Part shown: positions 19,008 to 27,472 of the stretch, piece after piece
Numbering within the stretch: the stretch's first letter is position 1
Layout: each line of letters opens with the position of its first letter
Virus record (IMG/VR): IMGVR_UViG_3300045596_000094
Location: 128,001-192,000 of that record
Direction: 5' to 3' (one strand)
Source: a virus
Lineage: Duplodnaviria; Caudoviricetes
Length of the DNA: 64,000 bases
Program-made: the position numbers and the translations under genes
Notes under the pieces: model-generated
What the model was told of the DNA's origin: nothing
The model's database searches: none
The model's input: only the letters and a program-made list of their open reading frames with translations

Positions 19008-19037
19008 ATTTCCCTCTCATTTTTGATAAGGTTAGTT

Positions 19038-19625
19038 ATGGCTTATAAGCACCAAACAAAAGGGCGTAACAAACGCCGTACACAGGCGATCCAAAAAGCC
19101 AAAGGCGGGCATATCTCTCAAGACAAATACCGCTCTCTCTTAAACAAACTCGCTCAAACTGTTTTAACCGTTAAAGGTCAACAGCAAATCCTTACACAAG
19201 CTCCGCCGATTTTCAATGTTCGCCCTATGATCGAACGTGGTGAAATCGACCCAAAACTTCTTGATGCTAAAAAGTTGGTTGAATGTGGAAAACAGATTCT
19301 GCTTGCAGAACCAACTCTCGCCACACGCATTGAAAATCTTCTTAATAGAGCAGCCGACTTTCTAGACCACGCATATAAAGTGAACTTCGGCGGATTGTCT
19401 GAAGTCAATCAACTCAAGACAGTATCTCAGATTCTTGAAATTCAATCTGAATCAGAAGCCTGGGCTATTGATTTCACTTCTCAAATTCATGGACCGCTAT
19501 TGGAAGCAATAGATGTTCTGAATAAGGCTTTACCAGAAGCCAATCGTGTTGACGTAAAAGACATGCTCAACATGGTAAACGCACTAAAATTACTTACGAA
19601 CGAACAAGGTGAAACAAATGTCTAA
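19038..19625 (+). CDS. Hypothetical protein with basic N-terminus
   Basis: Start reassigned to ATG 19038 (MAYKHQ, TAAGG SD); helical. Confidence 0.55.
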   Translation: MAYKHQTKGRNKRRTQAIQKAKGGHISQDKYRSLLNKLAQTVLTVKGQQQILTQAPPIFNVRPMIERGEIDPKLLDAKKLVECGKQILLAEPTLATRIENLLNRAADFLDHAYKVNFGGLSEVNQLKTVSQILEIQSESEAWAIDFTSQIHGPLLEAIDVLNKALPEANRVDVKDMLNMVNALKLLTNEQGETNV

Positions 19626-21273
19626 TAACGAACAAGAACTTCCAATGTTAGATGAAGATGGTGTGGAGGTAACACCGCCGGAACCCGAAACGGTACCCCT
19701 CCTGGAGACTGTACCCGGTGATGTTCCACCAGAAAAACCGCAGGAAGATACGAAAGAAGACATTATCGATATTCCTGAAGTGAAACTTCCACGCACTGAG
19801 GCAGAGCCTAACATGCGTGTTAAGAAAGTGTTTGATGTCTATTCGGTTATTGATGAAACTACTAAGAGTAAAGATAAACGCGAACCTTTACTCTTACTGG
19901 CAAAACCATTCAAGTTTTTGCGTGAAGGTGCCGAATCAGAAGCTTGGACACTACTCACTGAAGACATGAGTAAAGATGAAGCTTTGCAGGAGTTCATGGC
20001 ACGCTTCTTCTATGCTGGAACTTTCTCATTAGGTCAATCCGAAATTAAAGATCGTGGATTCTTTGAAGGTTGGTTGGGTGATGAAGAAACACCAAATGAT
20101 TCGATCTTACAACAAATTCGTGACGATAAAAATTCAATTGCGATTGGTGCTCGTCGACCAGATATCGGTAAACAAGGTGGTCGTCGCTTAACAGGTAAAG
20201 CAGCACGTGCTCAAATTGGTTCTGTATTAGGTAACGGTATTACTACGAGCATTCCTTTACCACATACCGGTATCAACATGGAGTTTAGTGCGCGCGGTGA
20301 CGTTGAACTTCTTAACCTTGATTTAAAGATGGCTGAAGAACGTGTTAAAATCGGACATGATACAGCGGGAATGATTTTCCAATGTTCACAGTTTGGTATC
20401 TCAGAGCGTTTATTCAATTTCGCCATGGAATCGGTTACAGATGCGAATCTTCTTGGGTGGGATGATCCATCTATGGAGTTAGCAAAACTGATTCCGATTA
20501 CTGATTTACCAGTGATTTATTGGGGTGTTGCACAGACACTCTATCCTAACGGATACCCATTAGATTTACCATGTGCCTCTGGTCCATTAAACTGTAAACA
20601 TGTTGAACGTGTGAATTTGAATATTCAACGCATCTTCTGGATGAATCGTTCAAAACTTACAACCGATCAACAAAAGCAGTTGTCCGCGGTACGCCATAAA
20701 CACTCTCTAAACGATTTGGAGACGTACGCAAAAGAAGCAGCGAACATTCGTGAACATTCATTCGATGTTATTGTCAATGGCGCTAAGATGACACTGGAAT
20801 TAACAGTGCCAACTATTCACGAGCATATCGAAGCGGGTAAACGTTGGGCATTAGAAGCTGGCCGTGCTGTGGAAGATATCCTTCAAACAGATGATCCAGA
20901 TCCAATGCGTCGACTGGCGTACATGCGTCGAGTTATTGAAATGTCTTCTCTGCGGGAATATGTTTCTTGGGTTAAGAAAATTACCTTTGAAAATGGTAGT
21001 TATGTCGACAACAAAAATGTTGAAGATATCGAATATAACTTAACTCAACTTACACGTGGCGATGATGAAGTTGTTGATCAGATTTTCGCTGAAATTCAGA
21101 AGTTCATTGAGAAATCAACAGTCGCCATTATTGCTATTCCGAACTACGCATGCCCTAAATGTGAAACGGATCAGGCTACGACCGTATCTGAAGAACATCC
21201 AGAGCTTATTCCTTTGGACATCGAAAAACTTTTTTTCGAATTAAAGGACCGCAGACTAGCATCCCGTTTGTAA
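19609..21273 (+). CDS. Baseplate hub/tail assembly chaperone-like protein (T4 gp26/gp51-like; phiKZ gp77-like)
   Basis: Two Cys knuckles (LPCASGPLNC, YACPKC) and near-terminal LFF; real start may be ATG 19618. Confidence 0.55.
   Translation: MKQMSNNEQELPMLDEDGVEVTPPEPETVPLLETVPGDVPPEKPQEDTKEDIIDIPEVKLPRTEAEPNMRVKKVFDVYSVIDETTKSKDKREPLLLLAKPFKFLREGAESEAWTLLTEDMSKDEALQEFMARFFYAGTFSLGQSEIKDRGFFEGWLGDEETPNDSILQQIRDDKNSIAIGARRPDIGKQGGRRLTGKAARAQIGSVLGNGITTSIPLPHTGINMEFSARGDVELLNLDLKMAEERVKIGHDTAGMIFQCSQFGISERLFNFAMESVTDANLLGWDDPSMELAKLIPITDLPVIYWGVAQTLYPNGYPLDLPCASGPLNCKHVERVNLNIQRIFWMNRSKLTTDQQKQLSAVRHKHSLNDLETYAKEAANIREHSFDVIVNGAKMTLELTVPTIHEHIEAGKRWALEAGRAVEDILQTDDPDPMRRLAYMRRVIEMSSLREYVSWVKKITFENGSYVDNKNVEDIEYNLTQLTRGDDEVVDQIFAEIQKFIEKSTVAIIAIPNYACPKCETDQATTVSEEHPELIPLDIEKLFFELKDRRLASRL
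21231..21237 (+). other. Candidate -1 programmed ribosomal frameshift site T TTT TTC
   Basis: Correctly phased X XXY YYZ heptamer; -1 frame is open from 21192 through the whole 21306..21821 ORF. Confidence 0.6.
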
Positions 21274-21305
21274 AAGGTGGGAAGCTTCTAGATAATGACC
21301 CAGAG

Positions 21306-21821
21306 ATGGGCCATGTGACTAGACAGCGTTTTGGTAAGAATACAGATACTCTCAATTTATTATTTGAGTTTGCCGCTAAAGTAGGTAGATGTAATAATGG
21401 TTGGGAGGTCGCTTACTTCATGCAGGCTTTCTACGACAATGTGTATGGTTTATCAGATAAGATGTATCTGGAGAACTATGAGCGCAAAGAAGTGAATAAC
21501 TTCAACCGCCCATTGTCGATGGTCAGTATGAATAGTCGTGAAGGGTTAAGTGAGTTCTCAGGATATCGAAGACGTTTAGTGGAATACATGTCCTTTAAAG
21601 TAAAAGATAATACTGGGATGAGTTTTCTTGAATGGATTAATTTACCAACATTCATTCTAGAGCAACTCCTTGGCGATTTAAGACTACAGTTCCAAGAGCG
21701 TGAAGCAGAAGCGGAGCGTCAAAAACAAGCCATGTTAGATCAAGCTAATATGGGCGGTGCTAAGGATCCGCATACCTTGGCAATGGAACAACTCGCTGGC
21801 GGTTCGAAATACCGAGCTTAA
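21306..21821 (+). CDS. Tail-chaperone 'T'-like ORF, probably made as a -1 frameshift fusion with 19609..21273
   Basis: GMSFLEWINLPTFILEQLL resembles GT-type C-terminal helix-turn-helix; weak SD; in -1 frame of upstream gene. Confidence 0.55.
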   Translation: MGHVTRQRFGKNTDTLNLLFEFAAKVGRCNNGWEVAYFMQAFYDNVYGLSDKMYLENYERKEVNNFNRPLSMVSMNSREGLSEFSGYRRRLVEYMSFKVKDNTGMSFLEWINLPTFILEQLLGDLRLQFQEREAEAERQKQAMLDQANMGGAKDPHTLAMEQLAGGSKYRA

Positions 21822-21843
21822 ACAAAAAAAAATAATTGAATAA

Positions 21844-21873
21844 ATAGACTAGAGCCCTAGGGCTCTAGTCTAT
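21844..21873. terminator. Bidirectional terminator; perfect 30-bp CTAG-centred palindrome
   Basis: ATAGACTAGAGCCCT|AGGGCTCTAGTCTAT between convergent genes. Confidence 0.75.
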
Positions 21874-24874: not shown

Positions 24875-27472
24875 TTATACCGTGATTCTTAAGAAACGGT
24901 TTTGGTGTGATTTCACCTTGCCGTTAAATTGTAACTTCTTCTCTTCATGATAAGCCATATGCTTACGGATATCAGAACAGATTAAGTAATAGAACTTAGG
25001 GGTTTGACCAGGGTAGTTTTTCAATACCCGTAATCGCCCTAAGACTTGCAGATTGGTTTTTTGACTTCTAAGGTTAGTTGTCATGAGAGAAGCAATCAAA
25101 TCCTCTAAGTCAAAACCAGTACCAAACGATTGCACTGTTGTAATCAATACATTCGCTTGTTTCGCTTCATCGTAGATATCCCCAGCCGAAGCTGCGTATC
25201 TTGCAAAACTAACATTTGGATATGCCTTCTCTAATACCTTCCATATAGCCGTAGCCATTTCCACTGAAGATACAAAGATACATGCCCGTTGCTTATCCTT
25301 ACGAATACTGAGGTACTCTTCCCGTAACCAGTCCACCATGATCTGAGAATAGGCTGCGAACATCTTCCTATTCTTGAGGATATAATCCTCGTAAGCATTG
25401 TGACTGTAATCGGTACTACCGCGATGTGATGTCTTTACCTGATCAGGCTTTTCAAGCGCGTACATCAATGAGTAAACATCGATGTATTTCAGATATTCCA
25501 CTTCAGGAGAACGAATCTCTTTCGGGAACATCACCGCTAAAACTCTGTCAAGGAAAGTACCATCTTCCAACGTAGCGGACAAGCTAAATGATTTACCTAC
25601 GTGTAGATAGAGCTCCTCTTTGAAATTCGCCCACAACGATAAGTGAACCTCATCCTTAATACGTGAACCAATATCAAAGAGCTCATACAGCTCATGTGGA
25701 CTACATGGGTAAACCCCATCTAATTCACCATTAAACTTTTCATACGCTTCAATGAAGTTAATTAAAGTTCTAGATGAACAGATAAACACCTTAACGTCAT
25801 CGAGTAACCCTGCTTCCACCATCTGCATGGCTTTCTTCAGGTCTTTAGAGCCCTGGATGTAAACCACTTCTTTCGAAGGATCTATATCAACAACTTTCTT
25901 CTTACCATCAAAAGCTTCTGACCAAAGGTTAAAGAATCGAGCTTCAATACTCACTAGGATCTTCCCACCAATGCGACAAGCGGCGGATAAAGCACAAAAT
26001 GTGTTGTGGGTTACAACAAAGTTCGTAGTAACATACAGGTGTTCAGGGTGATCAATAGCGATACAGGTGGTCTGATCTCTACCCACCAATTCAACCGAAC
26101 GAATATTTAACTTCAAATCTTTCGAGTATTGGTTATCATCGTTGATTCTTTCAGCTTTCCGAGGAAGACTGAAATATTGGGAAGGTTTCTGAGAACGAAC
26201 TAGAATATTCCATGACATTCTACCAGCCCTAGTTTCACCCTTATACGTAAAGTTCTTCTTCTTCGGAACCATAGTGCAGATATCACCAAGACTATGTGCC
26301 AGATAACGAAATTGGTCAGCCATTATTTGCGATGTTGTGGTAAATGCCATCTCACCACTTTTACCGACATAACCATCGGTATCCATCAAACCTTGTATAA
26401 GCGCTAAGCGAGCTTCGTACGGGGCATTCATGTAAACCTCAGGAATAACCTTCTCCCAAGCTCTACATCCATGCATACCTAATTCCTTAAGTATATTCAA
26501 TAGTGGGTTATTACCCCGTGGTAGTGTGTCTCGGTTCGCCCTAATAGCGTAAGCATTGCGAGAATCATCGCGCTGTAAGTAATACCCTAGATCCTCAAGT
26601 GGTTTTCGACACCTCTCAATAACCTCGATGTCTAACTTACAAATCGAAATACTACCGGTCGTTATTGCGCCGTCACCTAATAATACACCCACTAGGTATG
26701 GATCTAGTGGGAGATCACCGTTATGGAAACCTACGAATGGTTGCTCTATAAGAGGAACGTATACTCGTGGATTAGGCATCGAAATCAGCCGTTTCACCTC
26801 TAGAGTATCAACGACTCTCCATCTGCGATGAGGTACTGTGTTCACGTAATAGACTTTCCATAAATGTTGCGGACAACATTTAATCGTTCGACCATCGTAG
26901 AAACTAACATTATAAACATCAGTTTCTCCTTGAGGATAAACACCTATTACATTAGACACCGTTCCATCTGGACAAATGACCTTATCACCCACCTGCATGT
27001 CACCCATTCGCTTCCATCCAGTCGGGGTCAATACCAACTCTGAGTTGATACTTGCTTTCCCTTGACCGGTTTGAAGGTTTAGGATCTTCGTCACCCCTTT
27101 ATCGACCATATAGTCAATCAAGGGAATCTGATTCTCACGAGCTACGAAGCCAGGCATGAGCTTCAAATCCACCGGGGTGAATTTGTATAGCTCGGCATTC
27201 TCTTCGTCGTAGGTAAGTCCACGACTATCCATTAAAGTTTTGAACTCCGCCAGAGAGTGGATGTGGAATCTCCACTCTCTTTTGTTGTCCGTAAAAGCAG
27301 CGTATATTTTCTTCAGCGTGGGCGCTGGGGGTTTCTGCCCAAACGCCCGAGCCTTATACACACCACGGTAATCATAATCTGCCAAACGAAAGGCAAACTC
27401 TTTGATTGCTTTATACTGCCACCCATCGTGACCAGTGACAGTAAAGAAGTGAGTATAGGAGGTTATTAACAT
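24875..27472 (-). CDS. SF2 (UvsW-like) DNA helicase, phiKZ gp75-like, intein-containing
   Basis: Walker A LQTGQGK^T split by intein, DEVH, SAT, QVLGRLR. Confidence 0.85.
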   Translation of the reverse strand: MLITSYTHFFTVTGHDGWQYKAIKEFAFRLADYDYRGVYKARAFGQKPPAPTLKKIYAAFTDNKREWRFHIHSLAEFKTLMDSRGLTYDEENAELYKFTPVDLKLMPGFVARENQIPLIDYMVDKGVTKILNLQTGQGKASINSELVLTPTGWKRMGDMQVGDKVICPDGTVSNVIGVYPQGETDVYNVSFYDGRTIKCCPQHLWKVYYVNTVPHRRWRVVDTLEVKRLISMPNPRVYVPLIEQPFVGFHNGDLPLDPYLVGVLLGDGAITTGSISICKLDIEVIERCRKPLEDLGYYLQRDDSRNAYAIRANRDTLPRGNNPLLNILKELGMHGCRAWEKVIPEVYMNAPYEARLALIQGLMDTDGYVGKSGEMAFTTTSQIMADQFRYLAHSLGDICTMVPKKKNFTYKGETRAGRMSWNILVRSQKPSQYFSLPRKAERINDDNQYSKDLKLNIRSVELVGRDQTTCIAIDHPEHLYVTTNFVVTHNTFCALSAACRIGGKILVSIEARFFNLWSEAFDGKKKVVDIDPSKEVVYIQGSKDLKKAMQMVEAGLLDDVKVFICSSRTLINFIEAYEKFNGELDGVYPCSPHELYELFDIGSRIKDEVHLSLWANFKEELYLHVGKSFSLSATLEDGTFLDRVLAVMFPKEIRSPEVEYLKYIDVYSLMYALEKPDQVKTSHRGSTDYSHNAYEDYILKNRKMFAAYSQIMVDWLREEYLSIRKDKQRACIFVSSVEMATAIWKVLEKAYPNVSFARYAASAGDIYDEAKQANVLITTVQSFGTGFDLEDLIASLMTTNLRSQKTNLQVLGRLRVLKNYPGQTPKFYYLICSDIRKHMAYHEEKKLQFNGKVKSHQNRFLRITV
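26003..27055 (-). mobile_element. Class 3 intein (351 aa) with LAGLIDADG/DOD homing endonuclease
   Basis: Starts with Ala (ASINSELVLTPTG); block B HLW, block F TTCIAID, block G VVTHN followed by Thr; endonuclease motifs LVGVLLGDG and IQGLMDTDG. Confidence 0.88.

Follow-up and report, generated by a model that had tools for sequence, protein, structure and literature searches.

The gp77-like core gene of the phiKZ-like jumbo phages (Chimalliviridae core gene cg18) probably contains a conserved site for programmed −1 ribosomal frameshifting, at which ribosomes decoding two consecutive phenylalanine codons near the end of the gene would slip on tRNA-Phe and continue into a downstream reading frame that is annotated as a separate small gene. 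We describe the site in a stretch of viral DNA of 64,000 nucleotides (nt), hereafter the window, which comprises positions 128,001 to 192,000 of the IMG/VR virus record IMGVR_UViG_3300045596_000094, a record of 269 kb with terminal repeats.

In the proposed mechanism, ribosomes on the gp77-like mRNA would arrive at the sequence U UUU UUC with the P and A sites both occupied by tRNA-Phe, an ideal setting for tandem slippage. Most of them would stay in the 0 frame and terminate 11 codons further on, yielding a short form of ~551 amino acids (aa), while a fraction would slip back by one base, after which both tRNA-Phe could re-pair fully (UUU and UUY with UUU). The slipped ribosomes would read 194 codons in the −1 frame and produce a long form of ~734 aa, carrying as a helical C-terminal domain what the annotation lists as the separate small gene. 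The layout, its codon-level conservation, the conservation of the −1 product ahead of any start codon and the lack of in-frame fused forms are documented below; slippage on the ribosome, its efficiency and the roles of the two isoforms are inferred.

Reading frames around the slippery heptamer

In the window, the 0-frame codons CTT (21229-31), TTT (21232-34) and TTC (21235-37) place the heptamer in the X XXY YYZ phase required for simultaneous slippage, on the codons of Phe542 and Phe543, which are both invariant in the gp77 family. The TTC is followed by GAA TTA AAG GAC CGC AGA CTA GCA TCC CGT TTG and the stop codon TAA at 21271-21273, hence the 0 frame ends 11 codons (ELKDRRLASRL) behind the heptamer. 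The −1 frame is open from 21192, 13 codons ahead of the heptamer, reads TTT TTT CGA ATT AAA GGA CCG across the site and continues without a stop via the ATG at 21306 to a TAA at 21819-21821 (Table 1). A sequence-only reading of this DNA had singled out the heptamer at 21231-21237, 11 codons before the stop, together with a −1 frame opening at 21192 and running into the open reading frame (ORF) at 21306..21821, and its coordinates and phase were right. It had also called the Shine-Dalgarno sequence of that ORF weak, in agreement with our finding that a GAG abuts the ATG and that AAGGTGG lies ~23 nt upstream.

Table 1 Coordinates of features at the gp77-like locus, given as window positions
Feature	Position	Strand	Remarks
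gp78-like gene	19023..19625	+	stop overlaps ATG 19618 by 8 nt
gp77-like core gene (Chimalliviridae cg18)	19618..21273	+	0-frame product ~551 aa
Last −1 frame stop (TGA) before the site	21189..21191	+	read from the sequence
Slippery heptamer T TTT TTC	21231..21237	+	in phase X XXY YYZ, on the invariant Phe542-Phe543 codons
Predicted −1 frame extension	21237..21821	+	194 codons plus stop, joined to residues 1-540 (from ATG 19618)
Doubly coded overlap	21238..21273	+	0 frame ELKDRRLASRL plus stop; −1 frame RIKGPQTS...
ATG in the −1 frame	21306..21308	+	gene callers' start for a separate 171-aa gene; not conserved
Palindrome of 30 bp	21844..21873	.	22 nt past the extension stop; read from the sequence

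The sizes of the two products depend on the start codon. The ORF lister placed it at GTG 19609 (19609..21273, 554 aa), and the sequence-only reading had accordingly given 554 aa for the short protein and ~737 aa for the fusion. The layout of the −1 fusion stands, but products of 551 and 734 aa, starting at ATG 19618, are more probable, because GTG 19609 lies within the AAGGTGA ribosome-binding site of ATG 19618, the proteins of the relatives start with MS..., and the ESM Atlas record begins at the Met encoded by this ATG. The predicted long isoform of ~734 aa thus consists of residues 1-540 plus the extension.

Runs of T are rare in the coding sequences of this phage. Over the whole 269-kb genome, only three runs of seven or more T's were found on the coding strand of ORFs of at least 120 aa, compared to ~27 expected from composition, i.e., such runs are about ninefold rarer than composition predicts. 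Behind the run at the gp77-like site the −1 frame is open for 196 codons, versus 2 and 15 codons behind the other two, which are not followed by long open stretches. These two runs lie outside the window, at genome positions 194981 and 208811; one is a run of seven T's 61 codons into an ORF of 403 aa, the other a run of ten T's eight codons into an ORF of 300 aa, and the latter is probably located upstream of the true start. In a strain represented in a public sequencing run, a T>A exchange at 21189 converts the −1 frame stop TGA into AGA and opens the −1 frame further upstream. The assembled public contigs of the same strain span the site and show the heptamer and the run length unchanged, without any insertion or deletion.

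Conservation of the site and competing explanations

For comparison we used a set of 27 genomes or contigs, consisting of the window, seven metagenome contigs (33-70% protein identity) and 19 isolate phages infecting eight host genera (Pseudomonas, Erwinia, Serratia, Klebsiella, Vibrio, Ralstonia, Burkholderia and Cronobacter), with protein identities of 16-70% over the whole set; the closest clade of the window is covered in DNA by the contig L006 (70% identity) only. In 27/27, the homologous Phe-Phe codons close to the C-terminus carry a T-run, and in all of these sequences the −1 frame is open through a homologous extension of 151-195 codons. This frame is closed 2-46 codons before the site and open from there on, while the 0 frame continues past the T-run for 8-44 residues. 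The −1 relation was seen in two more genomes from tblastn coordinates alone. The canonical in-phase heptamer T TTT TTY (T TTT TTT or T TTT TTC) occurs in 23 of the 27. Concerning length, the runs comprise five T's in two genomes, six in four, seven in 19 and eight in two, and nine of the sites end in ...TTC. In BONAISHI and VP4B the heptamer ends in C and contains six T's only, with the in-phase codon pattern kept. The alignment of orthologous gene pairs that the sequence-only reading had proposed as a check therefore strongly supports its central claim, namely a programmed −1 frameshift that fuses the gp77-like gene to the next ORF, in a core gene of the Chimalliviridae situated at a distance from the tail genes: the orthologs retain both the heptamer and an open −1 frame, and many of them lack a start codon for the downstream ORF.

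Since homopolymers are error-prone, a miscalled run or a recent frameshift mutation could in principle have split one long gene in two. One public record does look miscalled at the run: in Xanthomonas phage RTH11 (OQ790161.1, L001:4088-4639), the body, the tail (FFTLLGQR...) and the extension are found in three frames around a run of seven T's, and the annotated coding sequence (CDS) of 628 aa continues into 67 Arg/Ala/Pro-rich residues. One T more (eight, as in the phages RAY and SURPRISE13) would give the standard layout. The RTH11 run is probably a homopolymer miscall, and it may also be a real variant. For the family as a whole, an artefact or gene decay is scarcely conceivable, because 27 independent assemblies, produced by many laboratories on many platforms, show the same split and the second strain in the public run has the same run length. 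Moreover, the 0-frame tail behind the Phe-Phe pair is itself conserved, as FF.LKDRRL in the clade of the window and as FFTLA.Q[RK] elsewhere, and among 43 representative homologs of the extension, drawn from 1.84 billion proteins and 105-182 aa in length, not a single one was fused in frame to a gp77-like body. The two-frame layout has hence been retained throughout, in keeping with a requirement for the two products.

The T-run is also more than the imprint of an invariant Phe-Phe pair. Given Phe-Phe, a null model based on the TTT/TTC ratio of each gene and its frequency of T at third codon positions predicted T TTT TTY with a probability of 0.008-0.25 per genome (mean 0.11), and the Poisson-binomial P for 23/27 was 1.2e-19 if the genomes are treated as independent. 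The preference is most striking in GC-rich phages, in which TTT is otherwise the rare codon (TTT:TTC of 2:19 in PhiPA3, 2:16 in RP31 and 3:17 in BUCT660). In SURPRISE13 all 17 other Phe codons are TTC, yet the site reads GTT TTT TTT, with eight T's. In gene 26 of phage T4, the Phe-Phe pair is written TTC TTT, hence the residues as such need no T-run, if T4 gp26 is a true relative. Judged from these codon choices, the conservation of the T-run is not due to chance and goes beyond what the protein sequence requires.

Further support comes from the part of the extension that precedes any start codon. The first ATG, GTG or TTG of the −1 frame lies 8-85 codons past the heptamer in the 27 genomes, for instance 85 codons in KTN4 (phiKZ-type), 77 in PhiEaH1, 70 in L007, 68 in RAY and 45 in L010-L012. 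In the alignment of the −1 products, the conserved columns GH[VI]..FG, followed by R.aY-D..yGI, are located upstream of this first start in many genomes. In many genomes including phiKZ, the first start falls within conserved columns at a distance of 44-85 codons from the site, and the ribosome can reach the part of the extension ahead of it only by readthrough from gp77. The stop density of the −1 frame in the gene body is 0.03-0.18 per codon, at which chance would not be expected to keep the 45-85 codons ahead of the first start free of stops. In the clade of the window, the peptide [KR]L[IL][DN].DP..GHV[TS][RK] reaches upstream of ATG 21306. The sequence AAAGGACC directly behind the heptamer is invariant in 8/8 clade members, against their AT-rich codon usage; it fixes K-D in the 0 frame and K-G-P in the −1 frame, and its invariance fits both frames being read in the overlap. 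On the comparative evidence, the −1 frame is coding and conserved ahead of any start codon of its own.

These data bear directly on the conventional view that the locus consists of two ordinary genes, the downstream one initiating by itself, at ATG 21306 here and at other or non-canonical starts elsewhere, with the T-run as a by-product of Phe-Phe. Gene callers and all public records do annotate two genes, and a Met at the position MGHVTR is shared by the window and two or three close relatives. However, the position of ATG 21306 is occupied by ACG (Thr) in the 70%-identical L006 and by Asn in L007 and L009-L012, and falls into a gap in L008, and the ATG has only the weak Shine-Dalgarno sequence described above. 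In many genomes conserved residues are found ahead of any canonical start, as far as 85 codons before it in KTN4, a −1 frame open from the site to the start would arise by chance with P ~0.9^n per genome, and both the choice of TTT and the T at the preceding third position run contrary to the genes' own codon usage. The lengths of the downstream protein in public databases vary from 74 to 182 aa, with different starts, as expected of gene callers' output where no real start exists. Two independent genes thus appear largely refuted by the comparative data, and we regard this explanation as very improbable.

Several points weigh against a programmed ribosomal frameshift at this site. The evidence for it is wholly comparative. 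The 27 sequences are not phylogenetically independent, and for the ~12 deep lineages we estimate P ~1e-8 instead. The phase of the T-run is not an independent observation either, since Phe-Phe is invariant in the protein. Four genomes have imperfect sites, namely G TTT TTT in PhiPA3, A TTT TTT in Psa21, A TTT TTC in PS119XW and CTT TTT ACG in pVa-21. In the phage from which the window originates, some independent initiation may occur at ATG 21306. A Shine-Dalgarno-like sequence upstream of the heptamer was not found, nor was a consistent RNA hairpin downstream of it (folding z mostly between −1 and +1 relative to shuffled sequences, −2.5 to −3.9 in a few genomes), and there was neither an RNAalifold consensus structure in the clade nor an Rfam family. 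As no stimulator was found, and many phage frameshift sites have none, the efficiency of frameshifting is probably modest.

The missing ribosomal stimulator also counts in favor of the main rival, slippage during transcription, in which one of the phage's RNA polymerases (the virion enzyme or the multisubunit enzyme outside the virion) would add one U to part of the transcripts and so give rise to the same long isoform. A homopolymer of five to eight T's exists at the site in every genome, a polymerase prone to slippage would be in keeping with the rarity of long T-runs on the coding strand, RTH11 deviates at the run by a single T, and the slippage behavior of chimallivirus polymerases is not known to have been described. 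The known bacterial cases of transcriptional slippage, such as Thermus dnaX, IS elements and Shigella mxiE, need runs of about 8-9 or more. Here, 25 of the 27 runs are not longer than seven and six of these comprise only five or six T's, below the length of the known bacterial slippage runs. The nine runs ending in ...TTC did not grow longer instead; what is conserved is the in-phase heptamer and not the length. Homopolymers are avoided generally, and such avoidance would agree with slippage of ribosomes or with mutational instability too. Heptamers with six T's and a terminal C, together with only 2/27 runs of eight T's, fit the ribosome better than a polymerase, and we consider slippage by the polymerase unlikely. 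A conserved programmed −1 ribosomal frameshift on tRNA-Phe remains the explanation that we judge probable from the compared genomes.

Known recoding systems and a possible link to T4 gp26/gp51

A conserved −1 frameshift in tail assembly chaperone genes is known from phage lambda (gpG/gpGT), from P2 (E/E+E'), from Mu and from many siphophages and myophages. The gp77-like locus resembles lambda G/GT in its layout, which suggests a −1 slip near the 3' end of a gene leading to a short and a C-terminally extended product with a common N-terminal part. In both cases the downstream 'gene' has no start that could be relied on, the layout is retained even where the sequence has diverged, and a strong stimulatory structure does not appear to be needed. 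The resemblance does not extend to the proteins. The gp77-like body measures ~551 aa instead of ~100-150, the gene is located beside virion-RNA-polymerase/head genes and a helicase instead of between the genes for tail tube and tape measure, U UUU UUY takes the place of lambda's G GGA AAG, and no similarity to tail-chaperone families was found in sequence or fold. Among the Pfam matches of 15 members up to E 10 there was no tail-chaperone family, and the HK97 chaperone 2ob9 reached a Z of 3.8 on a low-confidence model of the body, which is within noise. The identity of a G/GT tail chaperone, which the sequence-only reading had suggested, is hence not supported for a protein about four times the size of gpG, encoded between virion-RNA-polymerase/head genes and a helicase and without a family match; by position, size and sequence the locus lies outside the lambda G/GT families, and it would resemble them in its working only through the two isoforms that a −1 shift yields. 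Likewise, no fold match supported the likeness of the extension to the helix-turn-helix of lambda 'T' that had been proposed.

Other known systems share single traits with the gp77-like locus. Gene 10A/10B of T7 and T3 and capsid and tail genes of Listeria phages undergo −1 frameshifting at their 3' ends. There, as predicted here, low-level slippage a few codons before the stop, at a U-rich Phe site (G GUU UUC in T7), results in a minor longer isoform; the proteins concerned are major capsid or tail proteins with short extensions, in contrast to the conserved domain of 151-195 aa at the present locus. In dnaX of E. coli, a −1 frameshift stimulated by an upstream Shine-Dalgarno-like sequence and a downstream hairpin gives rise to tau and gamma, the shifted product being the shorter one. 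A conserved −1 slip on a homopolymeric heptamer that sets the ratio of two isoforms of one protein would be common to both, whereas the shifted product is the longer one at the gp77-like locus and neither of the two dnaX stimulators was found there.

Searches for the function of the two parts gave little. Neither the gp77-like body nor the extension belongs to a Pfam family, and a PDB sequence search with the family profile returned nothing. The AlphaFold model of the body had a predicted local distance difference test score (pLDDT) of 51; it yielded no Foldseek match at E ≤0.001, and the best VIA-align Z was 5.3, for helices only. The extension was modelled with a pLDDT of 72 as mostly helical, with a long C-terminal helix. 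The best PDB matches of its fold had a Z of 5.0 (death domain, MerR-like and bHLH-zip entries), all within noise, and the matches in BFVD were uncharacterised chimallivirus homologs only. Two Cys pairs are conserved in the gp77-like protein, C322/C329 and C515/C518, so that 'Cys-knuckle', the term used in the sequence-only reading, is a fair description.

The same reading had noted a resemblance of the upstream protein to gp26 and gp51 of T4. Both protein families have a Cys pair in mid-protein and, towards the C-terminus, ..TV..A.P..CP.C.. followed by ..FFEL. T4 gp26 (gene 26, L030:3803-4429) ends in ...CPECGKTHAHVIRGLKEFFELL, which resembles the C-terminus of the gp77 family, ...CPKCE...IPLD..LFFELKD. 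In hhalign, the alignment of the gp77 family matched T4 gp26 with a probability of 36% and E 3.7e-4 over 38 C-terminal columns including the CP.C...FFEL motif, but a profile-profile comparison gave only 6%. The gathering score of the family PF12322 (T4_baseplate; 24.5 bits) was not reached, the window protein giving no match and one of 15 relatives a match at E 0.28; six-frame searches with PF12322 in this genome and five isolate genomes found nothing, and the control genomes gave no match either. Of 30 named neighbours of residues 205-554 in the ESM Atlas, 22 were clusters in which PF12322 is assigned to less than one quarter of the members (14-24%; 16% in the listed one), and one structural neighbour with a TM (template modelling) score of 0.63 belongs to a cluster with PF12322 on 14% of its members. 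The resemblance is thus a weak though repeatable lead that stays below the family threshold.

There are also clear differences. The gp77 family is ~2.5 times longer, and T4 gp26, with its TTC TTT codons, has neither a slippery site nor an extension. T4 gene 26 also gives two products, by an internal start according to the annotation, and gene 25 starts in the −1 frame relative to gene 26 via a TAATG overlap, without a slippery site. We take a distant link between the gp77 family and the T4 gp26/gp51 hub-assembly chaperones (PF12322) as a weak lead. That the gp77 family is the chimallivirus counterpart of gp26/gp51, with the frameshift producing from a single gene the pair of chaperones for which T4 has two paralogs, is a tentative and rather doubtful idea; if true, the fixed-ratio logic of G/GT would be extended from tape-measure chaperones to hub chaperones, in a family whose annotated genomes have all missed it. 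By analogy with G/GT, a fixed ratio would be expected between the two isoforms, of which the long one would carry an additional binding or oligomerising domain; a role of both in assembly is possible provided that the weak link to gp26/gp51 holds.

Gene neighborhood, annotation and implications

The gp77-like protein of the window corresponds to phrog_4585 (E 2e-88), and its orthologs are gp77 of phiKZ, gp074 of PhiPA3, gp136 of 201phi2-1 and gp267 of RAY. A tblastn search with this protein matched 187 phage records, all from jumbo phages of the phiKZ kind. IMG/VR scans for relatives and a megablast search against phage records found none. In the supplement to PMC10299810 the gene is listed as core gene cg18, a 'hypothetical protein', and the downstream ORF (gp266 in RAY) is missing from the list.

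The gp77-like gene and the preceding gp78-like gene form one translation unit, because the stop of the latter and ATG 19618 overlap by 8 nt. The same gene order exists in phiKZ, PhiPA3 and 201phi2-1. Further neighbors are a split RNA-polymerase beta subunit of the virion RNA polymerase (phrog_2962, E 1e-111), a gp79-like gene, small genes and a helicase of 865 aa (24875-27472, minus strand), in which a large homing-endonuclease-like insertion (intein) resides inside the P-loop region. Downstream, the extension stop is followed by nine A's and then by the perfect palindrome, which is shared with the convergent minus-strand gene (window 21822-21873); one public contig has one extra A at 21823. 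The palindrome likely constitutes a two-way terminator hairpin closing the plus-strand unit 19023-21821, and a simple terminator scan did not list it.

None of the public genome records compared contains a joined CDS at this locus; two separate genes are given. Searchable papers on a frameshift, a slippery sequence or gp77 in phiKZ and Chimalliviridae contained no description of the site. Antisense oligomers against PHIKZ077 were marked as toxic in PMC12571901, which is uninformative on the locus. The annotation of the two parts is inconsistent. In PhiEaH1 (NC_023610.1, L022:192-1741) the gp77 ortholog, located right at the beginning of the record, has no annotated CDS, and of the extension the annotation covers just a piece of 81 aa (1496-1741). 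In KTN4 (phiKZ species, L004:4338-4580) the extension appears as an ORF of 80 aa, with its Met deep inside the conserved domain, and another 85 codons of open −1 frame separate this Met from the T-run. The RefSeq entry 'PHIKZ076' is a different gene, located on the plus strand and thus opposite to the extension. The extension should therefore not be called gp76 and is without a standard gp number in phiKZ.

The nucleus-forming phages of the phiKZ kind belong to the best-studied giant phages, but cg18 is still 'hypothetical', and the extension has not been counted as a core gene, because it is annotated as an unrelated small gene whose start varies from record to record. One gene with two isoforms would change the annotation of ~190 public genomes (187 matched), and the long form would count as one more conserved form among the core proteins. 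Results of knock-downs, of transposon hits and of proteomics at the locus would have to be reread, as a hit in the 'downstream gene' would remove the long form only, and the function of the locus would gain a simple testable handle. The site would also be a new and clean case of conserved recoding in a gene other than those for tail chaperones.

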